Numbered from the stretch's first letter, positions 4,046-35,101 are shown. The stretch is DNA of 35,101 bases from Vicinamibacterales bacterium (GCA_051985095.1 JBPYEE010000054.1:1-35101), one strand, 5' to 3'. Made by a program: numbers and translations. The notes: generated by a model not told the origin, from the letters alone.

Positions 4046-4076
4046 CAGAACGTTCCCCGCCCCGTTCCACCCCCGG

Positions 4077-5184: not shown

Positions 5185-5185
<1 letters not shown>
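4640..5185 (-). CDS. nuoC: NADH-quinone oxidoreductase subunit C
   Basis: Track ORF 4640..5593 trimmed to ATG 5185..5183, which overlaps the nuoB stop as TGATG. The 181-aa product has the NuoC core ...ELTATDYWPRDPRFELVYAL...VWPAANWLEREVWDMFGIVFTRHPDPRRLLMPDDWEGFPLRKDYP. Confidence 0.93.
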
Positions 5186-5632
<447 letters not shown>

Positions 5633-5649
<17 letters not shown>

Positions 5650-6004
5650 CGTGTCCCCAGTCGAGGGCCCCTTTGCGCCAGACGTAGATGTAACCGGTCA
5701 CCAGGAGCGCCATGAAGAGCAGCAGCTCCACAAAGCCATTCCATCCCAGCTGGCGCAGCGCCATCGCCCAGGGATACAGGAACGCCACTTCGATGTCGAA
5801 CAGCAGGAAAATCATCGCCACGAGGTAGAACTTGACCGACTGGCGCTCGCGTGCATCGCCGACGGGGGGCATCCCGCACTCGTACGGCGCTTCCTTTTCA
5901 GGCGTCGGTTTACGCGGCCCCAGGACGCTCGACAGCAGGATCGAGACCAGCGCGAAGCCGGCGCCGAGCGCGATCATGATCAGGATTGAGAGCCACCCTT
6001 GCAT
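5633..6004 (-). CDS. nuoA: NADH-quinone oxidoreductase subunit A
   Basis: 123-aa membrane protein with ...[41 protein letters not shown]..., the NuoA/ND3 signature. First gene of the operon, upstream of nuoB. Confidence 0.93.
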
Positions 6005-7689: not shown

Positions 7690-10600
7690 GTGGCGCGCTC
7701 GTCGAGCAATTCGCTCGCGCTTTTTCATCCCGCGGTCTCCGACTGGTTCTCCGCGTCATTCGACGCCCCGACGCGGCCGCAGGAGCTCGGCTGGCCGGCA
7801 ATTGCGCGGCGCGAGTCGACGCTCATCCTCGCGCCGACGGGCAGCGGCAAGACGCTGGCGGCGTTCCTCTGGTGTCTCGATCGGTTGATGTTTGCGCCGG
7901 CGCCGCCCCGGAGCGGCCGCTGTCGCGCGCTCTACGTGTCGCCGCTCAAGGCGCTGGCCGTGGACGTGGAACGGAACCTCCGCGCGCCGCTGGCCGGCAT
8001 CGCGCAGGTCGCCGCGCGGCGGGGTGAGGCGGTCACGCCGCTGGCGATCGCGATTCGCACGGGCGACACGCCGCAGAGCGATCGCGCCCGGTTTCAGCGC
8101 GAACCCGCCGACATCCTGATCACGACGCCGGAATCGCTGTATCTCCTGCTGACATCGAACGCGCGCGACGCGCTGCGGTCAATCGACACGCTCATCATCG
8201 ACGAGATCCACGCGCTGGTGCCGACCAAGCGGGGCGCGCATCTCGCGCTGTCGCTCGAACGCCTCGAGGACCTCTGCGTCGCGTCGCCTCAGCGAATCGG
8301 CCTGTCGGCAACCCAGCGTCCGCTCGACGAGGTGGCGCGGTTCCTCGGCGGGGCGCGGCCGCCCGATCGCGGCGCGACGCGGGGCAGGCGGCCGACGCCG
8401 GCGCATGCCCGCGCCACCGACAGCGCCGCCTCGGCCGAGGCCGACCTCGAACGCGAATTCGCGTCCCATCGCGGGACCGTCCACTATCGACCGGTCACGA
8501 TCGTCGACGCCGGCGAAAAGAAGGCGTTGGCGCTGACGATCGAAGTACCGGTTGAGGACATGGCGAAGCTCACGACGGCCGACGACATCCCGAGCGGTCC
8601 CGCCTCGGTCGGCGACACGCGACCGTCGATCTGGTCGGCGATCCATCCGCGTCTGCTCGAGCTGATCCGCGCGCATCGATCGACGCTGATCTTCGTGAAC
8701 AGCCGGCGCCTCGCCGAACGGCTCGCTGGCGCGCTCAACGAGCTCGCCGGCGAGACGCTCGTCCGCTCGCATCACGGGTCGATCGCCCGGACCCAGCGCG
8801 TCGAGGTCGAGGACCTGCTCAAGGCGGGGCTCCTGCGGGCGCTCGTCGCGACCTCGTCGCTCGAGCTCGGGATCGATATGGGCGCCATCGACCTCGTGGT
8901 TCAGATTGAGGCGCCGCCGTCGGTCGCGAGCGGACTGCAACGGATCGGCCGTGGCGGTCATACGGCGCACGCGATCAGTGAAGGCGTCATCTTCCCGAAG
9001 TTCCGCGGCGACCTGGTGGCCTGCGCGGCGGTCGCGAAGGCCATGCATGAGGGGGCGGTCGAAGCGACGCGCTATCCACGCAATCCCCTCGATATCGTCG
9101 CGCAGCACGTGGTGGCGATGACGTCGATGGATCCCTGGGACGTGGACGCTTTGTTTGCCCTCGTCCGCCGCGCCGCGCCGTTTGCGGAGCTGTCGCGCAC
9201 CGTGTTCGACGGCGTGCTCGACATGCTGTCGGGCCGGTATCCGTCCGATGAGTTCGCGGAACTCCGGCCGCGCGTCACCTGGGATCGCGTGGGCGGCACA
9301 TTGGCGGCGCGGGAGGGTGCCAAGCGCGTGGCGATCGCAAACGGCGGGACGATCCCCGATCGCGGCCTGTACGGGGTCTTTCTGCTCGGCGCGGGACCGG
9401 GCGCCGCGCGCGTCGGGGAACTCGACGAAGAAATGGTCTTCGAAAGCCGCGTCGGCGAAACCTTCGTCCTCGGCGCCTCATCGTGGCGCATCGAGGAGAT
9501 CACGCATGACCGGGTGATTGTGTCGCCGGCCCCCGGCGAGCCGGGCAAAATGCCCTTCTGGAAAGGCGACCGTGCCGGACGGCCGCTCGAGCTCGGACTC
9601 GCGATCGGCCACCTGACGCACGACCTGCTGCGGCTGCCGGCGGCCGCCGCCGTCGATCGTCTGACCCGCGAGCACGACCTCGACGCGCGCGCCGCCGAGA
9701 ACCTGCTGCAGTACCTGCGCGATCAGCTCGCCGCGGCCCGCGCGGTCCCCGACGCCTCGACGGTCGTCGTCGAGCGCGTGCGCGACGAGCTCGGCGACTG
9801 GCGGGTCTGCGTGCTCTCCCCGCGCGGGGGACGAATCCACGCGCCATGGGCGATGGCGGTCGCCGCGAAGGTTCGCGAAGAGACGGGAGCTGACGTCGAG
9901 ACGCTCTGGGGCGACGATGGTTTTGTCGTGCGGTTTCCGGACGTCGACCAGCCGCCGGACCCGCGGCTGCTCACTCCGGATCCGGACGAGGCCGCCTCGC
10001 TGGTCGTGCGGCAGCTCGGCGCGACGGCGCTCTTCGCCGGAAAGTTTCGGGAAAACGCAGCGCGCTCGCTGCTGCTGCCCAAACACCGGCCCGGCACGCG
10101 GGCGCCCCTGTGGCAACAGCGCAAGCGCGCGGCTGACCTGCTCGCGGTCGCCTCGCGCTACGGCTCGTTTCCGGTGCTGCTCGAGACCTACCGCGAGTGT
10201 CTGCGTGATTTCTTCGACATGCCCGCGCTGGTGTCGACGCTCGCCGACCTGCGCAGCCGCCGGATTCGTCTGGTGACCGTCGACTCGGAGACTCCGTCGC
10301 CCTTTGCGGCGTCGCTGCTCTTCACCTACGTCGCGAGCTTCATCTACGATGGCGATGCGCCCCTGGCCGAGCGGCGCGCCCAGGCCCTCGCCGTCGACCA
10401 GTCACAGCTGCGCGAGCTGCTCGGCGACGCCGAGCTTCGCGATTTGCTCGACGCCGATGCGATCGACGCACTCGAGTACCACCTGCAACGGCTCGACCTG
10501 GCACACCAGGCGAAAAGCGCTGACGCGGTCCACGATCTTTTGCTGGGCCTCGGCGATTTGACGCGTGAGGAGCTGGCGGCGCGGTGCGCCACGATTGACG

Positions 10601-12426
10601 CGGCGGCCACCCTCGACGATCTCGTGCGGGCACGCCGGGCGCTCGAAATCCGGGTGGGCGGCGATCCCCGTTTTATCGCGATCGAGGACGCCGCGCGGTT
10701 CCGCGACGCGATCGGCGTTCCGCTGCCTCCCGGAGTGCCCGAATCGCTGCTGTCGCCGGTTCGGGACCCCGCCGGCGATCTCGCGCTGCGGTACGCGCGC
10801 ACGCACGCGCCGTTCATCGCAACCGATTTCGCGGCGCGCTACGGCCTCGGCGTGCACGCGGCGGAAGCCATCCTGACGCGCCTGACGGCGGAAGGCCGAC
10901 TCGTCGAGGGTGAGTTCCGGCCAGGCGGCACCAAACGCGAGTGGACCGACGCCGCGGTGCTTCGCATGATTCGCCGCCGCTCGCTCGCGAAGCTCCGACA
11001 GGAAGTGGAGCCGGTCGACCAGTCGGTGCTCGGCCGCTTCACGGCCACGTGGCAGGGAATCGTCAAGCGGCGATCGGGCGCCGATGCGCTCCTCGACGCA
11101 ATCGAGCAGGTGCAGGGAGCACCCCTTCCGGCTTCGATTCTGGAGACGGAGATTCTGCCGGCGCGTGTCGACCTGTACGATCCGGCCGATCTCGACGCGG
11201 TGACGGCTGCGGGCGAGGTCGTGTGGGTCGGGATCGAGCCGCTCGGAGAGCGCGACGGCCGGGTCGCGCTCTATCTCGCCGATCACCTGCCGCGCCTCAT
11301 CGCCCCGGCCAGCCGCCCGTCACGGCCCGACGGCGAGCGGGAACGTGCGATTCTCGAGTACCTCCGCGCGAACGGCGCGTCGTTTTTCGGTCCGCTGCAC
11401 GAAGCCGTTGGTGGCGGCTATCCCAATACGACCGTCGACGCGCTGTGGGAGCTCGTGTGGCGGGGCGATATCACCAATGACACGTTCCATGCCCTGCGGG
11501 CGTTTACGAGGGCGCACGCAGCACGCCGCAAAATGCGCCGGCTCGAACCGGCGGCGTTCCGGTCGCGCCGACTCGCGCCGCCGTCGGCGGAAGGGCGCTG
11601 GACGCTCGTCCGTCGGGGCGCGAAGCAGGATGCGACGAAGTGGGCCGCTGCCCTCACCGAGCAACTGCTGGCGCGCCACGGCGTGGTGACGCGCGAAGCC
11701 GTCGCCGCCGAAGCCATTCCCGGCGGATTCGGCCTCGTCTATACGGTGCTGAAAGGACTGGAGGAAAACGGACGGATCCGGCGCGGGTACTTCGTCGCCG
11801 GGCTCGGCGCGACGCAGTTTGCGCTGCCAGGCGCGCTCGATCTGTTGCGATCGCTCAGGGACGCGCCCGACGATGCGGAAATCGTCACGCTTGCGGCCAC
11901 CGACCCGGCCAATCCGTACGGCGCGACCCTGAAATATCCCCGGCCGGGCGAGACGGGCGCGACGGGCTCGGCACGGGCCGGCCGCGGCCCCGTGCGAACG
12001 GTCGGCGCAACGGCGATCCTCGTCAACGGGGCGTTGGCGGCGTACCTGGCACGCGGCGATCGACAGCTGCTGACGTTTCTGCCCGACGGCGAACCGATCC
12101 GAACGAAAACGGCGCGCGGGATCGCGCGGACGCTGATCGACCGCGCTCGCACCGGTACCGTGCAGGCCGACGCACCTCGGGGCATGCTGATCGAGGAAAT
12201 CGACGGCGTCTCGCCGTCCCTCCATCCGATGGCGCCGTTTCTGGCTGAAGCGGGATTCGTCGCCGGGGCGTTGGGGATGCAGGCGACGCTGGGGCGTCCA
12301 TCCCCGCCCCCCGCCCATCAGGCCGCGACCGGCCGGCCGTTCATCGCGAACCGCCGGCCGGCCAGGTCAACGATTTCGAGTCCTTTCGCGCGCCGTTACT
12401 TCGACGAAGGCGAGGACGACGCGTGA
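7690..12426 (+). CDS. lhr: Lhr-family ATP-dependent DNA helicase (large helicase-related protein, long form)
   Basis: 1578-aa ORF with a GTG start. N-terminus FHPAVSDWFSASF...PTRPQ..GWPAI, Walker A LILAPTGSGKTLAAF, DEIH box LIIDEIHAL, then GLSATQRP, SHHGSIAR and LQRIGRGGH. Its length matches long Lhr proteins (E. coli and mycobacterial Lhr are about 1500 aa). Confidence 0.93.
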   Translation: MARSSSNSLALFHPAVSDWFSASFDAPTRPQELGWPAIARRESTLILAPTGSGKTLAAFLWCLDRLMFAPAPPRSGRCRALYVSPLKALAVDVERNLRAPLAGIAQVAARRGEAVTPLAIAIRTGDTPQSDRARFQREPADILITTPESLYLLLTSNARDALRSIDTLIIDEIHALVPTKRGAHLALSLERLEDLCVASPQRIGLSATQRPLDEVARFLGGARPPDRGATRGRRPTPAHARATDSAASAEADLEREFASHRGTVHYRPVTIVDAGEKKALALTIEVPVEDMAKLTTADDIPSGPASVGDTRPSIWSAIHPRLLELIRAHRSTLIFVNSRRLAERLAGALNELAGETLVRSHHGSIARTQRVEVEDLLKAGLLRALVATSSLELGIDMGAIDLVVQIEAPPSVASGLQRIGRGGHTAHAISEGVIFPKFRGDLVACAAVAKAMHEGAVEATRYPRNPLDIVAQHVVAMTSMDPWDVDALFALVRRAAPFAELSRTVFDGVLDMLSGRYPSDEFAELRPRVTWDRVGGTLAAREGAKRVAIANGGTIPDRGLYGVFLLGAGPGAARVGELDEEMVFESRVGETFVLGASSWRIEEITHDRVIVSPAPGEPGKMPFWKGDRAGRPLELGLAIGHLTHDLLRLPAAAAVDRLTREHDLDARAAENLLQYLRDQLAAARAVPDASTVVVERVRDELGDWRVCVLSPRGGRIHAPWAMAVAAKVREETGADVETLWGDDGFVVRFPDVDQPPDPRLLTPDPDEAASLVVRQLGATALFAGKFRENAARSLLLPKHRPGTRAPLWQQRKRAADLLAVASRYGSFPVLLETYRECLRDFFDMPALVSTLADLRSRRIRLVTVDSETPSPFAASLLFTYVASFIYDGDAPLAERRAQALAVDQSQLRELLGDAELRDLLDADAIDALEYHLQRLDLAHQAKSADAVHDLLLGLGDLTREELAARCATIDAAATLDDLVRARRALEIRVGGDPRFIAIEDAARFRDAIGVPLPPGVPESLLSPVRDPAGDLALRYARTHAPFIATDFAARYGLGVHAAEAILTRLTAEGRLVEGEFRPGGTKREWTDAAVLRMIRRRSLAKLRQEVEPVDQSVLGRFTATWQGIVKRRSGADALLDAIEQVQGAPLPASILETEILPARVDLYDPADLDAVTAAGEVVWVGIEPLGERDGRVALYLADHLPRLIAPASRPSRPDGERERAILEYLRANGASFFGPLHEAVGGGYPNTTVDALWELVWRGDITNDTFHALRAFTRAHAARRKMRRLEPAAFRSRRLAPPSAEGRWTLVRRGAKQDATKWAAALTEQLLARHGVVTREAVAAEAIPGGFGLVYTVLKGLEENGRIRRGYFVAGLGATQFALPGALDLLRSLRDAPDDAEIVTLAATDPANPYGATLKYPRPGETGATGSARAGRGPVRTVGATAILVNGALAAYLARGDRQLLTFLPDGEPIRTKTARGIARTLIDRARTGTVQADAPRGMLIEEIDGVSPSLHPMAPFLAEAGFVAGALGMQATLGRPSPPPAHQAATGRPFIANRRPARSTISSPFARRYFDEGEDDA

Positions 12427-24081: not shown

Positions 24082-25368
24082 ATGTCCACTGCGAAAGAGT
24101 CGGCCTTTGAAATGGCCGCGTCGAATGTGCGGTTCGGCGCCGGCGTCACACGCGAGGTCGGCATGGATCTCGCGGAACTCGGCGCACGACGCGTGTTGGT
24201 GCTGACCGACCCAATCGTCGGGCGCCTGCCGCCGGCGCTCGCCGTCATGGAATCGCTCGAGGCGAACGGCATTGCCGCCGCCATGTTCGATCGGGTCCGC
24301 GTCGAACCGACCGATGAGTCGTTCCGCGAGGCAATCGCCTTTGCCGCGGCTGATCACTTCGATGCTTTCGTCGCGGTTGGCGGCGGGTCGACCATCGACA
24401 CCGCCAAGGCCACAAACCTGTACACAACGTACCCGCCGGAAGACTTTCTCGATTACGTGAATCCGCCAATCGGCAGAGGCCTGCCGGTCCCTGGTCCGCT
24501 GAAGCCGCTGATGGCCGTTCCGACAACGGCCGGCACCGGCAGCGAAACCACCGGCGTGAGCATTTTCGATTTGACGAGCCTGCATGCGAAAACCGGGATC
24601 GCCAGCCGACGGCTGAAGCCGACGCTCGGTTACCTCGACCCGAACAACACGCGCACGATGCCACCGCAGGTCGCGGCCTCGAGCGGCCTCGACATCCTCA
24701 GCCACGCGGTGGAGTCGTACACGGCGATGCCCTTCACCGACCGGCCGAAACCGGATCGGCCGGCCCTGCGGCCCGCATATCAGGGATCGAATCCGATCAG
24801 TGATATCTGGTCGATCGCGGCGCTGCAGATCGTCGCGAACTACCTGGTCCGCGCCGTCGAGGATCCGTCCGACGATGAGGCGCGAGCGCAGATGATTCTC
24901 GCGGCGTCATACGCCGGCGTCGGATTTGGCAACGCGGGGGTCCATCTGCCGCATGGCATGTCGTATCCGGTGTCGGGCCATGTGAAAACGTACCGGGCAC
25001 CCGGCTACGACGTCGACCATCCCATCGTGCCGCACGGCTTCTCGGTCATCCTGAACGCCCCGGCAGTTTTTCGCTTCACCGCCCCGGCCCATCCCGATCG
25101 TCATCTGACTGCAGCCGCGGCGCTTGGAAGCGACGTGTCGCGCGTCCGAAGCGCGGACGCCGGACCGGTCCTGGCCGATCGGATCACGTGGTTCATGCAG
25201 CGCCTGGGGACGCCGAACGGCCTGCGCGCCGTCGGCTACTCGGCGAGCGACATCCCGGCGCTCGTCGAGGGCACGCTGCCGCAACATCGCGTGACGAAGC
25301 TCTCACCGCGGCCGGCGGGCCCCGAGGAGCTGGCACGGCTGTTCGAGCACGCGATGACCGCCTGGTGA
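24082..25368 (+). CDS. Iron-containing alcohol dehydrogenase family, hydroxyacid-oxoacid transhydrogenase (ADHFE1/HOT)-like
   Basis: 428 aa. ...FAVGGGSTIDTAKA..., ...MAVPTTAGTGSETT..., ...DILSHAVESY..., ...GVHLPHGMSYPVSG.... The overall length and N-terminus (AASNVRFGAGVTREVG) resemble HOT-type members. The subfamily call is tentative. Confidence 0.85.
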   Translation: MSTAKESAFEMAASNVRFGAGVTREVGMDLAELGARRVLVLTDPIVGRLPPALAVMESLEANGIAAAMFDRVRVEPTDESFREAIAFAAADHFDAFVAVGGGSTIDTAKATNLYTTYPPEDFLDYVNPPIGRGLPVPGPLKPLMAVPTTAGTGSETTGVSIFDLTSLHAKTGIASRRLKPTLGYLDPNNTRTMPPQVAASSGLDILSHAVESYTAMPFTDRPKPDRPALRPAYQGSNPISDIWSIAALQIVANYLVRAVEDPSDDEARAQMILAASYAGVGFGNAGVHLPHGMSYPVSGHVKTYRAPGYDVDHPIVPHGFSVILNAPAVFRFTAPAHPDRHLTAAAALGSDVSRVRSADAGPVLADRITWFMQRLGTPNGLRAVGYSASDIPALVEGTLPQHRVTKLSPRPAGPEELARLFEHAMTAW

Positions 25369-25384: not shown

Positions 25385-26551
25385 TCAGCCTGTCCGGCCG
25401 ACGCGGGTCGCCAGGATCTCGTCGACCGCCGCAATCGCGGCATCGAGCTCTTCATCGGTGGTGTAGAAGTGCGGCGACATCCGCACACCCGCATGCGGCC
25501 GCCAGTCGACGAGGACGTCCCGCTTCAGCAGCTCGCGGCAGACGTCGGGTGCGTCGGGCATGTCGATTGAGACGGTGCCGCCGCGCACGGATCGATCGCG
25601 GGGCGTGTGGACGCGCCACCCGCGCGCGTCGGCCAGCTCGATGAGCCGTGCAGTCTGACGCTCCGATTTCTGACGGATCCGATCAACGCCGGCTTCGCCG
25701 ATGATCCGCAATCCGGGTCGCGCGGCTTCGAGCCCCGGAATGTTCGAGGTGCCGTTCATGAACCGGTACGGCGGATTGGTGTAACGAATCGGGCCGGTCT
25801 CGAACGCGAAGGGATCTTCGTGCGCGAACCAGCCGGTCAGCGTGGGGCGCAAGTCCAGCGCGAGATCGGGGCGAACATAGAGATACGAGGTCCCCGGTCC
25901 GCCACAGAGCCACTTGAGCACCCCACCACACGCGAAATCGACGTTCAGGGCTCGGACGTCGACCGGCACCGTGCCGAGCGACTGAAAGGTGTCGAGCAGC
26001 ACATGCGCCCCCACCCGATGGGCCTTGTCGACGATCGCCTGTGCATCGTTGATGAACGCGCTCCGAAAGAGGACGTGCGACTCCGGCACGAGGACCGTCT
26101 CCTCGTCGATCGCCTCGAGCAGCCGTTCGGTCGGAACGGTGATTCCGTCCTCGGTCCTGACCATCTGGACGCGGGCACCGCGCGCGCGCTGCGCCTCCCA
26201 GAAATACATCACCGATGGGAAGTTCAGGTCCGTATAAACGATCTTGTTGCGCCTGCCGGAGAAGTCAAAGCACGACGCGACCACCGCCTGGCAGGTCGTC
26301 ACATTGCCGTAGGTGGCCACCGAGCCGGGAGCGGCGTTCATCAGCCGGCCGATCTCGCCGCCAACCTCTGCGGCCAGCGTCCACCACCGTTCTTCCCACG
26401 CGCGGACGCCACGGGTGGCCCACGTGTCGGCATAGTCGCGCATCGCATCGACCACGCCGCGGGGCATGGCGCCGAGCGAGTTGCTGATCAAATAGGTCGA
26501 GCGGCCGAGGATCGGAAACTCCGGCCGGAAGCGCAGCAGATCGTCACTCAT
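25385..26551 (-). CDS. Kynureninase-family PLP-dependent hydrolase
   Basis: Track ORF 25385..27598 trimmed to ATG 26551..26549 (MSDDLLRFRPEFP...). 388 aa, co-linear with kynureninases: ...YLISNSLGAMP..., ...DLNFPSVMY..., PLP-lysine context DFACGGVLKWLCGGPGTSYLYV, ...LTGWFAH..., ...VRMSPHFYTT.EE.D. The ATG overlaps the permease stop (ATGA). Confidence 0.85.
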   Translation of the reverse strand: MSDDLLRFRPEFPILGRSTYLISNSLGAMPRGVVDAMRDYADTWATRGVRAWEERWWTLAAEVGGEIGRLMNAAPGSVATYGNVTTCQAVVASCFDFSGRRNKIVYTDLNFPSVMYFWEAQRARGARVQMVRTEDGITVPTERLLEAIDEETVLVPESHVLFRSAFINDAQAIVDKAHRVGAHVLLDTFQSLGTVPVDVRALNVDFACGGVLKWLCGGPGTSYLYVRPDLALDLRPTLTGWFAHEDPFAFETGPIRYTNPPYRFMNGTSNIPGLEAARPGLRIIGEAGVDRIRQKSERQTARLIELADARGWRVHTPRDRSVRGGTVSIDMPDAPDVCRELLKRDVLVDWRPHAGVRMSPHFYTTDEELDAAIAAVDEILATRVGRTG

Positions 26552-27867
26552 CCGGCGATTGTACGTTTGCGGTACGCGTTCTTCAGCGCCAGGTAGGCGA
26601 GGTTGAGCACGAGCAGATACGCCACGCCGCTCGACACCGCGAGCGGCGAATCGAACCAGGTTTTCCCGATGCACAGCACGATCAAGGCGAAACCAGTCAG
26701 CGAGGCGCGCGCGGCGGCGACGCCGCCGCGACTCCGGATGTGCGCGGCCAGCGTCACCAGCCAGGACAACAACAGCCCGAAAAGCGCGGCGTTGAGGATC
26801 GACACGAACGCGGCGCCCGGCGCCCAGCGTTCGAGGGCCAACGCCAGGCCGATCGGCACTGACGACACGAGAACGGCATAGGTCGGCGAGCCGGCGCGAT
26901 TCAAGGCGCCGACGCGCGCCGGCGCCCATCCGCTTCGTGCGAGCGAGAAGAGGGTTCGCGAGGCCGAGTAGAGCGCCGCGTTGGCGCCGGACAGCGCCGC
27001 CGTGAGCACCGCGAAGTTCATCAGGTGACCTGCCGCAGGAATGTTCACCCGGCGGAAGACGGTGACGAAGGGCGATTCGGTGACGCCCGTGCGATCCCAC
27101 GGGATCACGCCGGTGAGCACGACGATTGCGCCCAGATAGATCACGGTGAGCGTGCCGAAGGTCAGGCGCGTCGCACGCGCCACATCGGCCGCGGATCGCG
27201 ATTCCCCGCTGGTGACGGCGACGAACTCGACGCCGGCAAAGGTGTACAGCGCAAAGGGCAGCGCGAGCAGCGGCGCCAGCGCGCCACGTGGAAAGAAGCC
27301 CCCGCGCGCGGTGTACTGCGGAGCGGTGCGGCCGGTGAGCATCAGTGCCGCGCCGAGCACAACGAAGGCGAGGATCACCATCACCTTGATCATCGCGAAC
27401 CAGTATTCGAAGCGGCCGTACTCGCGCACGCCGAGGAGGTTGACGGCCAGCAGCAGCCCGGATGCGAGGACGACCCACGCGAGTGGCGGCACGCGCGGAA
27501 ACCAGAACGCCATGTAGGTGGCCGACGCGACCATTTCCGCGCCGATGGAGATGGCGATGGCCGCCCAGTAGCCGGCACCCGCGAGGAATCCGGCCCACTG
27601 GTTCAGGTACAGATCCCCATACAGGCGAAAGGATCCGGCGGCCGGGTGCCGGCTCGCGAGATCGCCCAGCGCGCAGGTGACGGTCCAGGTGATGAACGCC
27701 GCGAGCAGGAACGTCAGGATCACGGACGGACCGGCGACGCCGATCGCGGCAGCCGATCCCAACAGCAAACCGGTCCCGATCGATCCGCCGACCGCGACCA
27801 TCGTCATCTGGCCAGCGGTCAGCTGGCGGCGGAGCCCGTGCTCGGGCGAGGGGACGGCTTCGATCAA
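26548..27867 (-). CDS. APC-superfamily amino acid permease
   Basis: 439-aa polytopic membrane protein. ...LRRQLTAGQMTMVAVGGSIGTGLLLGSAAAI... is the APC signature near TM1. The TTG start overlaps the upstream stop (TTGA). Confidence 0.9.
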   Translation of the reverse strand: MIEAVPSPEHGLRRQLTAGQMTMVAVGGSIGTGLLLGSAAAIGVAGPSVILTFLLAAFITWTVTCALGDLASRHPAAGSFRLYGDLYLNQWAGFLAGAGYWAAIAISIGAEMVASATYMAFWFPRVPPLAWVVLASGLLLAVNLLGVREYGRFEYWFAMIKVMVILAFVVLGAALMLTGRTAPQYTARGGFFPRGALAPLLALPFALYTFAGVEFVAVTSGESRSAADVARATRLTFGTLTVIYLGAIVVLTGVIPWDRTGVTESPFVTVFRRVNIPAAGHLMNFAVLTAALSGANAALYSASRTLFSLARSGWAPARVGALNRAGSPTYAVLVSSVPIGLALALERWAPGAAFVSILNAALFGLLLSWLVTLAAHIRSRGGVAAARASLTGFALIVLCIGKTWFDSPLAVSSGVAYLLVLNLAYLALKNAYRKRTIAG

Positions 27868-28847
27868 CGCGAGACGGTGACGGTTACGTTTTCGTAGGTA
27901 AACAGCGACCCGTCGCTCGCGACAGCGCGCAGCGTGTACTCGCCCGGTTCATCGAAGCTCACCTCGGTCACCCACTTTCCATCCGGCGGCGGCACCGGAA
28001 CCGTGTAGGGCGGCGACCACGGGGAGTTCGCGTACGCGCGCGTGTCGGTCCACGTCTTCATCTGATCCGGGCGGAACGTGACGCTCGACGCCCTGCCGCG
28101 GTACACCATCCACGACATCCGCAGGCCGGGCCCGCTCGACGGCACGATCGCGGACGGTGGCCGGTAGATCTGGTTTGCGAGCGATGCGGGCGTCGGGACC
28201 GCGCGCGGCGCGGCGGCGGGCGCCGGCGGGTCGGCCGACATCATCCGGCCGCTGGCATCGCGGGGCTGCGGTTTGCCGTCGCGGCGCGCCGGCAGATTAT
28301 CGGGATCACCGGCGAAGGCGGTCAGGACCAGTATTTCACCGGTTTTGATCGTGCGCCGCGGCGCGCCCTCGATGCGCAGCTCGGGCGGCACGTTCGTCCT
28401 CAGCTCGTCGCGCAGACTGCCGAAGTCGCCGCCGACTTCGGTCGAGATCACTTGATTGTCGATCTGGTAGTCCGATTTGAGCGACGCGTAAGCCTTCTCC
28501 GTCCGGCCGTTGGTGGTCAGCGTCCAGATCAACTCGCGGCTGGCCATGTCCTTCGGCACCTTCACTGTGAACAGAAACGGACTCCGCCGCGGATAGAAAT
28601 GCGTCGGCTGGCCCTGGTCCGGACCGCCCGGCTCGATGGTGTTGTCGGGTCCGATCGGCACATCGAACTGCTGCAGCCAGTTCGAGTTCATGTACCCGAA
28701 GTACATCGTCACCGTGCCGTCCGGCGCGTACATCCACCCTTCGTAGGCCGGCGAGACGCTCTGGCCGCTCGAGTAGGTGAAACGCGTCTGGGCGGTCACC
28801 ACCGCGAGCGACGACGCGGCGACGAGGGCCGCCAGGATCGTGCGCAT
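27864..28847 (-). CDS. Secreted protein of unknown function (two modules joined by a Pro/Ala-rich linker)
   Basis: Track ORF 27864..29240 trimmed to ATG 28847..28845, which overlaps the upstream stop (TGATG). Signal peptide MRTILAALVAASSLAVVTAQ, an internal linker ...SADPPAPAAAPRAVPTPAS..., and a beta-rich C-terminus ...GEYTLRAVASDGSLFTYENVTVTVSR. No family recognised. Confidence 0.65.
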   Translation of the reverse strand: MRTILAALVAASSLAVVTAQTRFTYSSGQSVSPAYEGWMYAPDGTVTMYFGYMNSNWLQQFDVPIGPDNTIEPGGPDQGQPTHFYPRRSPFLFTVKVPKDMASRELIWTLTTNGRTEKAYASLKSDYQIDNQVISTEVGGDFGSLRDELRTNVPPELRIEGAPRRTIKTGEILVLTAFAGDPDNLPARRDGKPQPRDASGRMMSADPPAPAAAPRAVPTPASLANQIYRPPSAIVPSSGPGLRMSWMVYRGRASSVTFRPDQMKTWTDTRAYANSPWSPPYTVPVPPPDGKWVTEVSFDEPGEYTLRAVASDGSLFTYENVTVTVSR

Positions 28848-30247
28848 CAGCGGGCGGACTGGCCGGTGGTCGGCATGGTCGTCACTGCCGGCGGCGCCCA
28901 GCACAGCGGGCAGCCGATGTCGTAATCGTTGCGGTTCTTCATCCTGGCGCGCCGCTTCGCCATCTCCGCCTGAAACTGCTCTTCGGTGAGCGAGACGGAG
29001 TAGCCGAGATCGATGAACATGTTCGCGATCGATCGCCGGCCGCCGCCGGCCCAGTTCCGCGGGTCTGCGGGATTCTTGTTCGCGGCCGTCGTGTCGAGGA
29101 ACCCGATCAGGTGGACGATCGTGCCCTTGGGCAGAAGCGGCGCGGCATCGTCCTCGTAGACATACTGCTTCACCCAGTTGTGGTCGTACCCGACGCAGTT
29201 GAGCGTCTGGATGTTGTGGCCCCAGATCGCTTCCAGGCACATGCGAACGCCCGGCGCGTGCAGGTGCGGCTCGAACGCGATGATCTTCGTGTGCTCCTGA
29301 AGCGTGGCGTACGCGTGCAGCTCCTGGTTCGCCTGGTTGGGCTTGACGTCGATGTCGATGCCGTTGCCGAGCCGCAGGGTGGAGCGTTTGTAAATGGGCT
29401 TGTACCCCGCGGGAAACAACTTGAACGCGAACTCGAGGTGGGCCTTCGTCTCGCGTCCGTTCGGATGAATGTGGCCGGCGTCGAGCGACAGCGCTGAATT
29501 GGCCTGCAGCAGGCGGCCTGCTTCCGGCGGGAAAATGTCGGCGTTGCGTCCAACCTCGTGGATGGGCCAGCTGCTGGCGAGCTCGTCGCCATTGCCCCGC
29601 TCGCCCATCTTCACGCTCGTGTACGTCATGTGATGAAACACGTACCGGCCGCCGACCGTCTTCGTCGCCCCCCCGCGCGGGATGTCGTTGATCTCGCGGA
29701 CCTCGACCGCCGACACGTAGCGATCTTCGGTGAGCCCCGTCGGAATCAGCCCGACGTCACCCCACCAATCCGGCCCGCTGGCGGGCACGAGGACTTCCTT
29801 CGATTTCAGCACCAGGTCGGGCTCGCCGATCGTCCACGTGTCGGAATCATCAAACCGCCGGGGCGGCGGCATGTCGGCGGGGTTCCCGCGGGGCGCCCCG
29901 CTGTCGGCCCAGGTGGCAATCTTCGCGATCTCCTCGTCGGAGAGCGACGGATCGTGCTTGAACTTCTGGATGCCGATGTTCTTCTCGACGAAAAACGGCG
30001 GCATCGCGCCGCGCTGGCTGCGCAGCGCCGTCCGCGTCTTGATCGAGCGCGCCCACGGCCGCACATCTTCATAGGTGACGAGGGGCATCGGCGCCACGCC
30101 ATCGACGTGGTGACATTCCTGGCAGCTGCGCTGCAGGATGGGCGCGATGTCCCGAGTGAAGGTGACGTCGGTCGATTGTGCCCGCGGGGCCGCCCAGCCG
30201 AGCAGGCCGACACCGGCGGCGGTGAGAAGAGCGGCGCGAACCGTCAT
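28847..30247 (-). CDS. Secreted haem-c (CxxCH) protein with a PHM/DBH-like copper monooxygenase ligand pattern
   Basis: Track ORF 28847..30268. I prefer ATG 30247..30245 because AAGGAG (30260..30255) lies 7 nt upstream. Signal peptide MTVRAALLTAAGVGLLGWAAPRAQS. Haem motif CQECH at 30124..30110 in the context FTRDIAPILQRSCQECHH...MPPF. Candidate Cu ligands (numbered from ATG 30247): H205-H206 (VFHHM), H259/H261 (GHIH), H328-x-H330 (PHLHAPG) and M410 (IANMF). Their spacing is similar to PHM CuH/CuM sites. Confidence 0.7.
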   Translation of the reverse strand: MTVRAALLTAAGVGLLGWAAPRAQSTDVTFTRDIAPILQRSCQECHHVDGVAPMPLVTYEDVRPWARSIKTRTALRSQRGAMPPFFVEKNIGIQKFKHDPSLSDEEIAKIATWADSGAPRGNPADMPPPRRFDDSDTWTIGEPDLVLKSKEVLVPASGPDWWGDVGLIPTGLTEDRYVSAVEVREINDIPRGGATKTVGGRYVFHHMTYTSVKMGERGNGDELASSWPIHEVGRNADIFPPEAGRLLQANSALSLDAGHIHPNGRETKAHLEFAFKLFPAGYKPIYKRSTLRLGNGIDIDVKPNQANQELHAYATLQEHTKIIAFEPHLHAPGVRMCLEAIWGHNIQTLNCVGYDHNWVKQYVYEDDAAPLLPKGTIVHLIGFLDTTAANKNPADPRNWAGGGRRSIANMFIDLGYSVSLTEEQFQAEMAKRRARMKNRNDYDIGCPLCWAPPAVTTMPTTGQSAR

Positions 30248-30273
30248 AGGCACACTCCTTCGCGGCAACTATC

Positions 30274-32307
30274 TCATGCTGAGGGGACCGACGGCAATGC
30301 AAACGACAGCAGCGTCGTGCCCGCGGCGATCACGATGTGCTGACGGCCGTCGAGGATGAAGGTCATCGGTGCGGCGCCCCAAATCGGCGTCCCGGTTGAA
30401 TAGCGCCACAGATGGGCGCCGTTTTGCGAATCAAACGCCATGAAATTGCCTTCGTTATCGCCCGCAAAGACAAGCCCCGACGCCGTGCTCATCACGCCGG
30501 CCATGGTCGGCGAGGTGAACCTGAATTCCCATCGCCGCTCGCCCGTCGTCGGGTCGATCGCGCGCAGCGCGCCGTACGCCTTCTCGCGATCGACGCGCAC
30601 GACACCGCCGAAATTCTGCTTCCCCGGCGTATTGGCGGGCGCCTGCGGCACGAAGACCGCGCAGGTTTCCCGCGCGTTCACGAAGAACAGGCGGCGCGCC
30701 GCATCGAATGACGGCGGATTGAAATTCGTGCCGCCCCACTGGTCTGGCACGCACCGGGTCGTGCCATCGTTCAGGACGAGCGGCCGGCCATCGCGGCCGA
30801 TTTCGCGGGCCCACGTCGTATCGGTGAACGGCTTACCGACCAGCAGCGTGCCGTCGCGCCGATCGAGCACGTAAAAGAATCCGTTCCGATTCGCAAGCAT
30901 GACGACCTTGCGTGTCACGCCGCCGATGGCCAGATCGGCGAGCACCGGGACCTGGTTGGCGTCCCAATCGTGCGTGTCGTGCGGCGTGAACTGGTAATGC
31001 CACCTGAGCGTGCCGGTGCGCGCGTCGATGGCGACAACCGAGTTCGTGTACAGGTTGTCGCCTTCCCGCCCGTGGCCCCAATAATCGGGATTCGGATTGC
31101 CCGTGCCCCAATAGAGCAGGTTCAAATCCGGGTCGTAGCTGCCGGTCATCCAGGTCGCGCCGCCGCCGCGCGCCAGCGTCTCGGCCGAGGCCGGCCACGT
31201 GTCGCTGCCCGGCTCACCCGGCGCCGGCACCGTGTAGAAGCGCCAGAGGCGGGCACCGGTCGACGGTTCGTATGCGTCGAGGAATCCGCGCGTCGGATAT
31301 TCGCCGCCCGAGATGCCGACGATCACTTTGTTGTCGATCACGAGCGGCGCGAGCGTTGCCGAGTAGCCGATCTTGTAGTCGGCCAGGACGACATCCCATT
31401 CAATCCGCCCGGTGCGGCGGTCGAACGCGAGCAGGTGCGCATCGAGCGTCACCATGAACAGACGGTCGCCGAGCATGCCGAAGCCCCGATTGACGGGCGC
31501 CTGGGCGCCATAGGTGAGGTCGGCCGGCAGCTCGCGGCGATATTGCCAGAAGGGACGGCCCGTTCGCGCGTCGATCGCCCACGCGAAATCGTTCGACCCG
31601 GTGACGTAGAGCACACCGTCGAACAGGAGCGGCGTCGCCTCGAACCCGCGCCCCCGCGTCAGCGTACCGGTTTGAAAGGTCCATTCGGCCGTCAGGCGAC
31701 CGACGTTGGCCGGCGTGATTTGCGTCAGCGGGCTGTGCCGCTGGGCCGTGAAGTCGCCGTGGAAGGAGAGCCACCTGGAGGGATCCTTCAACCCGTCGAG
31801 CAAATCGCGGTAGGTGATGCCGGGTGGCGACGTCGGCTTTGGGGGGGTCGGATGGAACGCCCCCGCCGCGTCGCCGCGCCGCACGTCGCGGAGATCGCGT
31901 TTCAGAAAACCCTGCAGCCGTCCGGTCGCGTCCGCAATTTGGATTGAAAAGGCGTCCTCGTTCTTGCGCTCGCCGTGAATCTCCCCGCCGTCGCGCGTGA
32001 CGAGGGTGACGATCTGGCGCACATCGGGTGCGAGCGTTTTCAGATGCGAGACGATGCTGCGGATTTCCTCGTCGGTCGCCGCGCTGCGCGGCATGGCGGT
32101 CCCGGGCACGCCGCTCCGAATGGTCTGAAACAGCCGCTCGTCACTCACGCCTCGGGCCGCGAGCGTCGTCAGGTCTGGGCCATTCAGCCCTTTCGCGTCA
32201 GCGCCGTGACAGGCGGCACACGTCTGCGCATAGAGCGCGGCGCCCGATCCGACCGCCGGCACCTGCGGCATCGGCGCCAGCAGGGCCGCGATGAGCAGGT
32301 CCAGCAT
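30274..32307 (-). CDS. PQQ-dependent dehydrogenase (8-bladed propeller, alcohol dehydrogenase family) with an N-terminal cytochrome c domain
   Basis: 677 aa. Haem motif CAACH at 32220..32206, followed by ...TAMP.... Propeller repeats with the recurring A.D..TG...W pattern (AIDARTGRPFWQY, AFDRRTGRIEWDV, AIDARTGTLRWHYQFTPHDTHDWD, AIDPTTGERRWEF, AFDSQNGAHLWRY). Confidence 0.88.
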   Translation of the reverse strand: MLDLLIAALLAPMPQVPAVGSGAALYAQTCAACHGADAKGLNGPDLTTLAARGVSDERLFQTIRSGVPGTAMPRSAATDEEIRSIVSHLKTLAPDVRQIVTLVTRDGGEIHGERKNEDAFSIQIADATGRLQGFLKRDLRDVRRGDAAGAFHPTPPKPTSPPGITYRDLLDGLKDPSRWLSFHGDFTAQRHSPLTQITPANVGRLTAEWTFQTGTLTRGRGFEATPLLFDGVLYVTGSNDFAWAIDARTGRPFWQYRRELPADLTYGAQAPVNRGFGMLGDRLFMVTLDAHLLAFDRRTGRIEWDVVLADYKIGYSATLAPLVIDNKVIVGISGGEYPTRGFLDAYEPSTGARLWRFYTVPAPGEPGSDTWPASAETLARGGGATWMTGSYDPDLNLLYWGTGNPNPDYWGHGREGDNLYTNSVVAIDARTGTLRWHYQFTPHDTHDWDANQVPVLADLAIGGVTRKVVMLANRNGFFYVLDRRDGTLLVGKPFTDTTWAREIGRDGRPLVLNDGTTRCVPDQWGGTNFNPPSFDAARRLFFVNARETCAVFVPQAPANTPGKQNFGGVVRVDREKAYGALRAIDPTTGERRWEFRFTSPTMAGVMSTASGLVFAGDNEGNFMAFDSQNGAHLWRYSTGTPIWGAAPMTFILDGRQHIVIAAGTTLLSFALPSVPSA

Positions 32308-32319
32308 GAGACCCGCAGA

Positions 32320-32325
32320 AGTATA
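32320..32325 (-). promoter_or_regulatory. -10-like hexamer TATACT 12 nt upstream of the PQQ dehydrogenase ATG
   Basis: The minus strand reads gaagagTATACTtctgcgggtctcATG. No SD lies between the hexamer and the start. Confidence 0.25.
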
Positions 32326-32675
32326 CTCTTCCGGCCTCTGGGCTCTGGCACGGCACTTGACCGTGGCGCCTGCATGTCGTCGAAGGAACCGCGCCGGCCG
32401 GGATCGACGCCCATCATTCGAGTCAGTGGCACTTCAATTACGTACCACCTGTGGATCACTCGTGTTTCTGGCCGGAGTGACATGCTCGTGCTGCGGTGCG
32501 ATGGCCACGGCAACCTCCTCGCGTCGATTCGAAGCGATATCGAGCGATGTAACCGTGAACCGGGTGCGTAGCCAATCTGGACAACTGAGCAAAAGCCGAG
32601 GGCCGGCGATCGCACGCAGCGCCGGCGTGGTCGGGCTGACTGGCGAGGCGTGAACGGGGCCACGCTCCGGGGCGC

Positions 32676-33329
32676 TCAGTGCACCCGCTCGCTCTTGATC
32701 GGGGGCTTGGACGACTCGCGCCAGTCGTCGTCGAGAATTGTCCAGAGCGCCTGATCCTGGTACTCGCCGTAGCGATAGAACGCCCTCCGAAGGACGCCTT
32801 CCTGCACGGCGCCCAGCTTGCGGAGCGCGCCATTGCCGCGCCCGTTGCAAATGGACGCCCGTGCCTCCATCCGGTGGACACCAATCGCGTCAAACGCGAA
32901 CCGCAGGACCAGCTCCGCACCTTCCTTGAAGATCCCGGTGCCCCAGAACTCAGATCCAATCGCGAATCCCCATTCGGCGGTCGCGAACCCGGGCTCGATC
33001 TGACGCACCTGGAAAATGCCGATCGCGATGCCGTCGACCGTCACCGCGAAGCACGCATAGGCGCCGGCCGCTCGCTGCCGCAGGGTCCAGGCGATAAAGC
33101 GCTCGAACCCCTCGACCGTGCCTGGCGGCGGCGAGATGAACCGCGACACTTCAGCGGTCGTCAGCATCGCGAAGAGCGAGGCCGCATCCGACGGACGCAG
33201 CTCGCGGAGCACCACCCGCGGGCCGCGCAGCACAGGCAGTCCGTCGCGCCAGTCGCTGGTGGTCGCGACGCCGGGCCTCGGCTGCACCGTGGCCACGTCG
33301 AGTTCCTCGCGGTACGGCATCTTCTCCAC
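32676..33329 (-). CDS. GNAT-family N-acetyltransferase (RimJ/RimL-like)
   Basis: 217 aa. ...VVLRELRPSDAASLFAML...FISPPP.T...F..F..W......G....FAV...G..IG.....QIEP....AEWGFAIGSEFWGTGIF.EGA.LVL.FAF...GVHR.EARA...N.RGNGALRKLGA..EG.LR. The GTG start lies 2 nt after the S8 stop. Confidence 0.88.
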   Translation of the reverse strand: MEKMPYREELDVATVQPRPGVATTSDWRDGLPVLRGPRVVLRELRPSDAASLFAMLTTAEVSRFISPPPGTVEGFERFIAWTLRQRAAGAYACFAVTVDGIAIGIFQVRQIEPGFATAEWGFAIGSEFWGTGIFKEGAELVLRFAFDAIGVHRMEARASICNGRGNGALRKLGAVQEGVLRRAFYRYGEYQDQALWTILDDDWRESSKPPIKSERVH

Positions 33330-33331
33330 GG

Positions 33332-35101
33332 CTAGATGCCCCCCACCACTCCCGACAGCCTCGTCGTCGGCGCCGGCACGAGCGGAACGACGTCGCCGAA
33401 CTCCACGTCGACGCTCGGCAGCGGCTCCGTGCTGTCGTCAGGATAGAGCGGCGCGTCGGCGGTGTCGGCCGTGCCCCACGTGACGTCCACGTCGATGCTC
33501 GTGCCCCACACGATGTTGTCGAAGGTATCGGCGTCGGTGCCCCACGCGATGTTGTCCAGCGGGTCGGCCGTCCCCCACACGATATTGTCCAGACTGTCGG
33601 CGCTGCCCCAGATGACGTTGGGGCAGTCCGCGCCGCCGCAATCGGTGCCCCACACGATGTTGCCGAGATCGTCGGTGCCCCAGACGATGTTGCCCAGGTC
33701 GTCGATCGATGTGCCCCACACGATGTTCAGCGCCGACAACACGCTTCCGGTGGTGTCGGCGGTCCCCCACACGATGTTGTCGCAGTTGTCGGCGCCGCAG
33801 TCGGTCCCCCAGACGATGTTCTGTCCGGAAACGCCCTGCGTGAGCGCGGTGCCCCAGACCACGTTAGTCGCCCAGGCGTTGCCGTGCGGGTTGAGGTACC
33901 CGCCGCCGATGACGTGGTTGCCCCAGATGATGTGGCGGCTCCAGATGGTCTGCGCCGGCATGACCGACCCGGGGCGGTTCGCGGCGTAGAATCGCGCCAG
34001 CATCACCGCGCCGAGGCTGTTCAGGAAGCCGGCCCCCTCGCGCAGCGCGCTGTAGCCCGGATAGATCTGCGCGGTGTATTGCAAAATGGCCTTGATCAAG
34101 TTGGGCGTCAGCGTCGGATTCGCCTGCAGCATCAATGCGACCGTGCCTGACACGACCGGCGCGGCCATGCTCGTGCCGGTCAGGGCCAGATACGGCTGAT
34201 AGCCGAGCGGGATCGATCCGCTGACCAGATACGCGGATTTCGTCGCGTAAAAGGTGCTTCCCGGCACCGCGAGCGAGATGGTGCCGGTTCCCGGCGCGAC
34301 CAGGTCAGGCTTCGCCGCGAAGTCGATGTAGGTTGGCCCCGAGGAACTGTAGTCGGCCATCGTGTCGTCGCTGCGCGTCAGCGTGCCCATCGTGCTCGAT
34401 GCCCCGACGGTAAGGACCCACGGCGCGTTGCCCGGCGCCGTGATGCCGCCCCACTGGAGCTGGCCCGCTGCGTTCTTTCCCAGATTGCCTGCCGCGGCCA
34501 CAACGGTGATGCCGAGGTCGGTCACCCGCTTGACGGCGATCGTCAACGGATCGGTCCAGTACGATTCATAAATCCCGGCGCCGACCGACACGTTCACGAC
34601 GCGGATGTTGTAGGCCTGGTAGTTCTGGGCGATCCAGGTCAGCGCCGCGATGATGTTGCTGATCGTGCCCCGGCCGTTGGCGTCGAGCACCTTGAGCGAG
34701 ATCAACGACGCGCCTGGCGCAATGCCTGCCTTCTGCCCGCTCGAGTCATATCCGTTGCCGAGGATGATGCCCGCCACATGGCTGCCGTGTCCGTTGTCGT
34801 CGTAGGGCTGCGTCTGACCGTTCACGAAATCGACGAACTGCGCGACGCGCTGGTTGCCGTACGGATAGACCGTTGCCGCCGTGTTCGTCAGGTCGTCGTG
34901 CCACGCCGCCACGCCCGAGTCGAGGGTCGCGATGGCGACGCCGGCGCCGGTGAGCCCGAAGTACTGCTGGACGAAGCGGGCGCCCACGGTCACCGCGGTC
35001 CGGTAATTTTGCGGCGCCAGCGGCCGGTTCTCGTGAACACGGAACACGTCGGGATGCGCGCTGAGCCTGGCAATCAGGGCGTCCGGGAGATCAAGCGTCA
35101 C
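33332..35101 (-). CDS. Subtilisin-like (S8) serine protease with a C-terminal N-I-V-W-G-T repeat region (partial; N-terminus lies beyond the right window edge)
   Basis: Catalytic triad contexts VAIATLDSGV (Asp), HGSHVAGII (His) and LTGTSMAAPVVSGTVALML (Ser), with oxyanion Asn in VNVSVG. The ORF is open to the window edge, and the first residues look like propeptide, so the 5' end is missing. Confidence 0.92.
   Translation of the reverse strand: MTLDLPDALIARLSAHPDVFRVHENRPLAPQNYRTAVTVGARFVQQYFGLTGAGVAIATLDSGVAAWHDDLTNTAATVYPYGNQRVAQFVDFVNGQTQPYDDNGHGSHVAGIILGNGYDSSGQKAGIAPGASLISLKVLDANGRGTISNIIAALTWIAQNYQAYNIRVVNVSVGAGIYESYWTDPLTIAVKRVTDLGITVVAAAGNLGKNAAGQLQWGGITAPGNAPWVLTVGASSTMGTLTRSDDTMADYSSSGPTYIDFAAKPDLVAPGTGTISLAVPGSTFYATKSAYLVSGSIPLGYQPYLALTGTSMAAPVVSGTVALMLQANPTLTPNLIKAILQYTAQIYPGYSALREGAGFLNSLGAVMLARFYAANRPGSVMPAQTIWSRHIIWGNHVIGGGYLNPHGNAWATNVVWGTALTQGVSGQNIVWGTDCGADNCDNIVWGTADTTGSVLSALNIVWGTSIDDLGNIVWGTDDLGNIVWGTDCGGADCPNVIWGSADSLDNIVWGTADPLDNIAWGTDADTFDNIVWGTSIDVDVTWGTADTADAPLYPDDSTEPLPSVDVEFGDVVPLVPAPTTRLSGVVGGI
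33468..33952 (-). repeat. In-frame array of about 13 N-I-V-W-G-T motifs with 4-11 residue spacers (coding repeat inside the S8 gene)
   Basis: On the plus strand, the 17-mer gtgccccacacgatgtt and close variants start at 33471, 33501, 33537, 33570, 33603, 33645, 33675, 33711, 33762, 33804 and 33849, with two degenerate copies near 33919 and 33941. The intervals are 30, 36, 33, 33, 42, 30, 36, 51, 42 and 45 nt, all multiples of 3. Confidence 0.9.

Follow-up and report, generated by a model that had tools for sequence, protein, structure and literature searches.

Peptidylglycine alpha-hydroxylating monooxygenase (PHM), dopamine beta-hydroxylase (DBH) and tyramine beta-monooxygenase (TBM) constitute the type II ascorbate-dependent copper monooxygenases (PF01082 + PF03712), which act outside the cytoplasm and for which ascorbate is the electron supply in animals. 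The type II quinohaemoprotein alcohol dehydrogenases (ADHs), such as ADH-IIB (1kv9), ADH-IIG (1yiq) and qhEDH (1kb0), share with the lanthanide enzyme PedH (6zcw) an 8-bladed pyrroloquinoline quinone (PQQ) propeller in which the residues for metal and PQQ are conserved, and they carry a covalently fused cytochrome c domain at the C-terminus. A PQQ/haem dehydrogenase is reported to drive a copper monooxygenase (PMC5960967) and a c-type cytochrome to reduce bacterial lytic polysaccharide monooxygenases (LPMOs; PMC8981238); the pairs concerned are fungal cellobiose dehydrogenase (CDH) or PQQ-pyranose dehydrogenase (CcPDH) with an LPMO, and cytochrome c with a bacterial LPMO. In the Kyn clusters of Pseudomonas aeruginosa and Acinetobacter baumannii (kynU, permease, kynB, kynR), a permease gene adjoins the kynureninase-family gene (PMC9162365). 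The present analysis concerns five consecutive genes, named G1 to G5 in order of transcription (25385-32307, minus strand), in a stretch of 35,101 nucleotides (nt) from Vicinamibacterales bacterium (GCA_051985095.1 JBPYEE010000054.1:1-35101), referred to as the window. These genes make up one compact, probably co-transcribed string, and on balance we lean towards regarding it as the fusion of two modules: G1-G2-G3, a predicted periplasmic copper monooxygenase/redox module, and G4-G5, a permease with a kynureninase-like enzyme.

The five genes are long minus-strand open reading frames with high third-position GC, in a window of 65-70% G+C, and their spacing from G1 to G5 is 26, -1, -4 and -4 nt. 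G1 (30274..32307, 677 aa) encodes a putative quinohaemoprotein (PQQ) dehydrogenase; its stop codon TGA (30276..30274) is followed by 26 nt containing AAGGAG and then by ATG 30247, the start of G2 (28847..30247, 466 aa), which encodes a haem-c protein resembling PHM and DBH. An alternative start for G2, TTG 30268, is possible, but the ATG is preferred because the Shine-Dalgarno sequence AAGGAG (30260..30255) sits 7 nt before it. G2 and G3 (27864..28847, 327 aa; a secreted protein of no known family) meet in TGATG (28849..28845). The junction between G3 and G4 (26548..27867, 439 aa; an amino-acid permease of the APC family) is TTGA (27867..27864), where the TTG start of G4 overlaps the stop codon of G3, and that between G4 and G5 (25385..26551, 388 aa; a kynureninase-like enzyme dependent on pyridoxal phosphate, PLP) is ATGA (26551..26548), where the ATG of G5 overlaps the stop codon of G4. 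The TTG is the sole possible start of G4, there being no other in-frame start codon upstream, and NCBIfam permease models align from residue 7-13. All four junctions were read directly, and gene calls, coordinates and junctions coincide exactly with those of an earlier account prepared from the nucleotide sequence without database searches (the sequence-only reading).

A Shine-Dalgarno sequence is seen for G2 only; its absence from G3, G4 and G5 fits translational coupling. A consensus scan inside the unit returned 1 promoter-like and 6 terminator-like sites, where 0.7 and 4.7, respectively, are expected; both counts are at chance level. The string is thus real and probably carried on one transcript, as had been supposed, considering also its minimal spacing and single strand. 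Gene overlaps of this kind are ordinary in this genome: those among the nuo genes at 973-4312, for example, measure 16 and 4 nt. The packing therefore signals an operon and nothing more unusual; tight translational coupling alone defines no pathway.

The neighbourhoods of the genes in other genomes were compared at 82 G2 loci, of which 55 have full flanks, and at 80 G5 loci from a metagenome scan (74-81% identity). G4 and G5 are found at none of the 82 G2 loci, not even at those with a G2 of 89-91% identity, and G1, G2 and G3 are found at none of the 80 G5 loci; the iron-type alcohol dehydrogenase and the GNAT gene of the window are likewise missing from all 82 G2 loci. At other loci, the gene after G3 is usually a cupin or a PQQ dehydrogenase. 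In the window G3 is intact, its C-terminus having the same form as in orthologues, and the start of G4 is placed on its stop codon. Since the two halves are never adjacent elsewhere and each of them is conserved alone, the string would represent two modules joined in this one genome. The sequence-only reading had instead coupled all five genes in a single pathway, an idea to which these counts are adverse, as the link between the halves is not conserved outside this genome. It had also raised the co-occurrence of G2 and G3 homologues with PQQ dehydrogenase and kynureninase genes: the former association holds (27 of the 55 full-flank loci), while the latter fails (0/82).

G2 has a clear signal peptide (MTVRAALLTAAGVGLLGWAAPRAQ) and a haem-c domain with the motif C42xxC45H46 (nt 30110-30124) and M82 as likely axial ligand. 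The proposed copper ligands (nt 29018-29635, minus strand) are H205, H206 and H259 for the CuH site and H328, H330 and M410 for the CuM site. Across 26 relatives of 27-53% identity, C42, C45, H46, M82, H205, H206, H259 and H328 are invariant, and H330 and M410 are at least 90% conserved. The pattern is that of PHM, HH...H for CuH and HxH...M for CuM; with a His-His pair and a third His ~55-65 residues on as the mark of CuH, and a His-x-His and a Met ~70-80 residues on as that of CuM, H205/H206/H259 and H328/H330/M410 both qualify.

When a profile of the 26-relative alignment was compared with the PDB, the best solved structures were PHM (E 0.013) and then DBH (E 0.034), with the HH and HxH motifs aligned. 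Alignment of the G2 family with a small PHM alignment by hhalign gave a probability of 69% and E 4.4e-5 over 234 columns, with the six copper ligands in register (H205/H206 with H107/H108 of PHM, H259 with H172, H328/H330 with H242/H244 and M410 with M314), and the negative control, G3 against PHM, gave 0.15%. Among the 26 relatives, Cu2_monoox_C matches seven and Cu2_monooxygen five; the matches are collinear and all under the Pfam cut-offs. By sequence thresholds G2 is outside the Pfam PHM/DBH families, and beyond the CxxCH domain it has no Pfam or NCBIfam match. The earlier description of G2 as a CxxCH protein with a PHM/DBH-like His/Met pattern is nevertheless borne out by the top structures and by the register of the six ligands.

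The ligand order of G2 is collinear with that of PHM, DBH and TBM, with similar spacing, and G2 too is predicted to act outside the cytoplasm. Conversely, the host of G2 is bacterial, its sequence is too divergent for the Pfam thresholds, its N-terminal c-type haem domain would replace the supply by ascorbate or cytochrome b561, it has an obligatory second subunit, G3, and its gene frequently shares a cluster with PQQ dehydrogenases and a cupin. The probable mode of action of G2 is that of a PHM/DBH enzyme in which haem is the point of electron entry.

The family is large and widely distributed. Metagenomes hold more than 7900 close G2 homologues, the best 120 at 79-90% identity; relatives fall into 10,837 representative clusters at E <= 1e-3 and, with each GTDB species represented by one genome, were detected in 514 species. 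The best 80 G2 loci (70-91% identity) belong to Vicinamibacterales, Bryobacteraceae, Solibacteraceae, other Terriglobia and Gemmatimonadales. Close G2 orthologues share an invariant C-terminal CPLC (C446-C449, in GCPLCWAPP; nt 28901-28912, minus strand), which is not invariant across the wider family and, as a CxxC, could be redox-active or bind Cu(I). Two distant relatives, P0359 and P0360, are long proteins with AhpC/TSA and thioredoxin-like or EF-hand domains fused to the cytochrome c-PHM-like core, which suggests that the family has further variants, redox or Ca-linked.

G3 also has a clear signal peptide (MRTILAALVAASSLAVVTAQ), followed by a conserved N-terminal domain of ~110 aa without known family, a Pro/Ala-rich linker and, at the C-terminus, an Ig-like domain. 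Pfam and NCBIfam gave no match and a profile search of the PDB returned only a chance antibody match (E 0.14), in agreement with its earlier description as a secreted protein of no recognisable family; orthologue alignments show no conserved metal-ligand set. An assignment of G3 as a PHM-like domain was rejected on the hhalign value of 0.15%. G3 lies directly downstream of G2 in all 55 full-flank loci, which belong to Acidobacteriota and Gemmatimonadota, and natural fusions occur among the representative relatives, in the order G2-G3 (P0263, P0275), G3-G2 (P0276) or, in P0271, G3 N-domain, G2 and G3 C-domain. These fusions have linkers at the junctions and no internal signal peptide; that, together with the three domain orders, led to rejection of the idea that they are merged gene calls. 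Because the two genes are invariably adjacent and in some lineages fused, G3 is assigned as a predicted subunit of G2, of non-catalytic, accessory type. A paralogous G2'-G3' pair, 35-43% identical, often accompanies the main pair at no more than a few kb, with its genes in either order (L005, L011, L016, L031, L036, L041, L046, L050, L052, L058, L059, L061, L063, L064, L070), which suggests a multigene enzyme family within single genomes.

The product of G1 consists of an N-terminal class-I cytochrome c domain (residues 19-92; PF13442, 49 bits), with the haem motif CAACH at residues 30-34 (nt 32206-32220), and an 8-bladed PQQ propeller (residues ~165-665; PF01011, 292 bits). It scores above the cut-off of TIGR03075, the PQQ-dependent methanol/ethanol dehydrogenases (503 bits against 480), and below that of TIGR04528, the acido-empty-quinoprotein group A (529 against 650). 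The sequence-only reading had recognised both parts, and these scores uphold it. The closest solved relatives are PedH (6zcw, E 2.6e-92) and the type II quinohaemoprotein ADHs, in a range of E from 1e-81 to 1e-92, and alignment with PedH shows that the Glu, Asn and Asp metal/catalytic residues are kept in the motifs GGE, GNP and HDTHDWD. G1 has D-W-D where lanthanide enzymes carry DxD, and DTHDWD is kept in its orthologues; the metal is therefore probably a lanthanide rather than calcium. A vicinal Cys-Cys is absent from G1, in which TYGAQAP aligns to RPCCD of PedH, and from the PQQ domain of every G1-like (clade A) orthologue.

Compared with the type II enzymes, which share the propeller, the metal/PQQ residues and the covalently fused cytochrome c domain, G1 carries its haem domain at the N-terminus instead of the C-terminus, has no vicinal Cys-Cys, has a motif that suggests a lanthanide rather than calcium, and is coupled in the genome to a predicted copper monooxygenase; moreover, at some loci of G1 orthologues the haem domain is a separate gene. 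In these cases the G1-like dehydrogenase carries no haem domain, and directly upstream of it is a distinct gene for a dihaem cytochrome c (L066 7426-8187; L069 3639-4820; L060 12362-13165; L012 4334-5002), a split/fused variation of the same unit. The N-terminus of G1, MLDLLIAALLAPMPQVPAVGS (residues 1-21, nt 32245-32307, minus strand), is hydrophobic, with no basic residue and with Asp at position 3, whereas the orthologues begin MVRV... and have normal signal peptides; no upstream in-frame ATG, GTG or TTG is available for a longer protein. Thus, of the signal peptides once attributed to the first three products, those of G2 and G3 are clear and that of G1 is atypical.

An enrichment of cytochrome-c PQQ dehydrogenases is associated with the G2-G3 pair. 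Orthologues of G1 (clade A; 60-84% identical, with DTHDWD and no Cys-Cys) are upstream of or near G2 in 19 loci, and a second group (clade B; ~22% identical to G1, Cys-Cys present) is just downstream of G3 in 16. Counting both, 27 of the 55 full-flank loci have such a gene within 10 kb, most of them adjacent and on the same strand, and lenient cut-offs add further, more divergent PQQ dehydrogenases; none was found at the 80 control loci around G5 orthologues in comparable soil bacteria. As the dehydrogenase is missing from about half of the loci, G1 is not an obligatory partner of G2-G3. A small secreted Cupin_2 protein (~135 aa, HSH...EHWH motif) is encoded at 30 of the 82 G2 loci, after G3 or divergent from the G1-like gene (for example L001 12449-12856 and L056 7373-7777, minus strand), and is not found in the present window. 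No further recurrent neighbour was seen at the G2 loci, where MacB-type transporters, dienelactone hydrolase and amidohydrolases are only sporadic.

For the first module we infer the cofactor content, the direction of electron flow, the hydroxylase chemistry and the nature of the substrate as follows. G2 and G3 would be the two subunits of a copper monooxygenase of the PHM/DBH type, in which a fused c-type haem replaces the electron-entry site. G1 would oxidise an alcohol, aldehyde or sugar at PQQ, probably with a lanthanide as the metal, and electrons would pass from PQQ to haem c of G1, then to haem c of G2, CuH and finally CuM, where O2 would be activated and a C-H bond of a periplasmic substrate hydroxylated; G3 would shape or stabilise the active complex. 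G1 may act on the hydroxylated product itself, so that the pair would be self-feeding and the electron cycle closed. The scheme is analogous to the reported donor-LPMO pairs (PMC5960967, PMC8981238), in that a haem-bearing donor would feed an extracytoplasmic copper monooxygenase; it differs from them in that LPMO and G2 are not homologous, the haem is of type c in both partners, and G2 is predicted to be binuclear and PHM-like, whereas LPMO is a mono-copper enzyme with a histidine brace. In its fullest form, the proposal is that G2/G3 is the first bacterial ascorbate-independent enzyme of the PHM/DBH class, soluble and periplasmic, fed by haem c and with two uncoupled copper sites, and that the neighbouring lanthanide/PQQ quinohaemoprotein, by oxidising the resulting alcohol, gives the two electrons back, in a self-feeding hydroxylase-dehydrogenase cycle widespread in soil Acidobacteriota and Gemmatimonadota; taken as a whole, this is a tentative and rather doubtful construction.

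In the second module, G4 matches PF00324 with 269 bits against a cut-off of 24.6, in line with its earlier identification as an APC permease; its best NCBIfam models are GABA/ThrP/AroP-type permeases, all far under their cut-offs, and no specific equivalog is reached. G5 matches PF00266 (115 bits) and KYNU_C (50.8 bits, cut-off 27), and its best solved relative, over the full length, is Pseudomonas fluorescens kynureninase (1qz9, E 1.2e-42), followed by cysteine desulfurases (1e-18). The lysine that binds PLP is aligned with that of 1qz9 (motif KYLNGGPG). A kynureninase-like identity, as first suggested, is thus retained, although G5 stays under the cut-off of the kynureninase equivalog TIGR01814 (142.9 bits against 246.4); it is predicted to be a cytoplasmic class-V PLP-dependent hydrolase. 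Where the P. fluorescens enzyme has Thr-Tyr-Lys, G5 has Val-Leu-Lys, with Leu replacing the Tyr before the PLP lysine. In kynureninase this Tyr matters for catalysis, and its replacement may mean a different substrate or reaction.

A permease is directly upstream of the G5 orthologue in 54 of the 80 loci, and most of the others have no upstream DNA; the other neighbours are unrelated to tryptophan catabolism. The pairing has the precedent that had been claimed for it, a permease gene next to kynU being known in Acinetobacter and Pseudomonas (PMC9162365); unlike those clusters, G4-G5 has the permease first, has no kynB, kynA or kynR nearby, and includes an enzyme under the equivalog cut-off. 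G4-G5 is accordingly described as a putative uptake-plus-cleavage pair, independently conserved and of a known kind, that would import a kynurenine-like amino acid and cleave it in the cytoplasm, as in the proteobacterial Kyn clusters.

Several observations weigh against the two-module interpretation and the enzymatic role given to G1-G2-G3. G2 itself has no match to the Pfam PHM/DBH domains (PF01082, PF03712) at E <= 0.01, and its relatives peak at 20.4 bits, against a cut-off of 23, and at 17 bits, against one of 30; the probability from hhalign is moderate; AlphaFold2 gave pLDDT 33 for G2 (shallow alignment, 30 sequences of 78-86% identity) and 46 for G3 (shallow alignment); the export signal of G1 is atypical, and at roughly half of the G2-G3 loci no gene for a PQQ dehydrogenase lies within 10 kb. 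The missing Pfam match, the sub-threshold matches of the relatives, the hhalign probability of 69% only and the poor model of G2 would agree with a convergent or spurious likeness to PHM/DBH, G2 being then a cytochrome c joined to an unrelated beta-rich domain with another metal or none. We consider this very unlikely: the PDB profile, the Pfam matches on relatives and hhalign are three independent comparisons that return the same collinear alignment, and few residues other than the six aligned ligands reach invariance or at least 90% conservation in the family. Alternatively, G2/G3 might be a periplasmic electron sink or oxidase, passing electrons from cytochrome-c-linked dehydrogenases to O2 or another acceptor, or a copper/redox-handling protein, and not a hydroxylase. 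In favour of this, G2 brings a haem c of its own and frequently neighbours dehydrogenases for which an acceptor is required, no substrate can be named for G2/G3, distant relatives are fused to AhpC/TSA, thioredoxin-like or EF-hand domains, and the C-terminal CPLC is conserved among close orthologues. However, the full PHM ligand set, including the CuM Met, is conserved in the G2 family, and in the characterised PHM family these ligands are reported to serve tightly coupled hydroxylation (PMC9064607); conservation of G2 at 70-91% across classes and the dedicated G3 also suggest a specific catalytic pocket. Such a non-hydroxylating role is thus judged unlikely.

The tight coupling of G3 and G4, with a TTG start and no Shine-Dalgarno sequence, belongs among the adverse points too, since it makes expression of G4-G5 depend on the upstream genes here and thereby allows for some functional link of the two halves in this genome. 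In its strongest form such a link would be the single pathway already mentioned: G1/G2/G3 would oxidise or hydroxylate an aromatic amino-acid-like compound in the periplasm, and the modified compound would enter through G4 and be cleaved by G5. The genes are tied together by one 26-nt gap and three start/stop overlaps, G4 translation probably depends on G3 by virtue of the overlap of its start with the G3 stop codon, no internal promoter or terminator signal exceeds chance, and enzymes of the DBH and TBM families act on aromatic amines, as is well established. Set against this are the absence of each half from the loci of the other, even where G2 is 89-91% identical, the conservation of each half alone with other neighbours, and the cupin or PQQ dehydrogenase that usually takes the place of G4 after G3. 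A link between the halves is without comparative support, and the one-pathway scheme has little probability.

The region upstream of G1 is a non-coding stretch of 368 nt (32308..32675, minus strand) and the likely promoter region of the five-gene unit; the consensus scan placed inside it a terminator-like hairpin of the upstream GNAT gene (32607-32595). The fold of the 381-nt stretch covering this region (32300-32680) is not unusual (z = 0.69), and no Rfam family was found anywhere in the window. On the other side, a convergent gene for the iron-type alcohol dehydrogenase (24082-25368, plus strand) ends 16 nt from the G5 stop codon and is conserved beside neither module; its best NCBIfam model, the ErcA regulator-like ADH, is far below the cut-off (191 against 550 bits). 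An S8 subtilase gene (33332-35101, minus strand; PF00082, 172 bits) runs off the end of the window, and the C-terminal half of its product has about ten copies of a short repeat like NIVWGT(A/S)D. Genes for NADH dehydrogenase subunits (51-kDa, 49-kDa and others; 973-6004, minus strand) and for a Lhr-type helicase of 1578 aa (7690-12426, plus strand) are ordinary chromosomal context.

A search of the literature, of which coverage was incomplete, brought up no account of the G2/G3 family, its link with PQQ dehydrogenases or a bacterial cytochrome c-PHM fusion; this is absence of evidence only. The lanthanide/PQQ studies from Acidobacteria-rich soils that were consulted make no mention of a G2-G3 neighbour. 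What appears to be new is a copper monooxygenase of the PHM/DBH type in a bacterial, haem-fed, two-subunit form, widespread in soil bacteria. G2 and G3 have thousands of metagenomic homologues, and G2 remains 70-91% identical across classes and into Gemmatimonadota, yet no curated family matches it. Few bacteria are as abundant in soil as Acidobacteriota, and to our knowledge no function has been assigned to most of their periplasmic redox enzymes. If the proposal is true, a haem-fed class would extend PHM-type enzymes from animal neuroendocrine chemistry to bacterial periplasmic metabolism and would represent another way to supply them with electrons. It would also give a concrete, testable role to cytochrome-linked PQQ/lanthanide dehydrogenases, among them many of the "orphan" acidobacterial ones, and would provide these bacteria with a new aerobic route for the C-H activation of small organic molecules.

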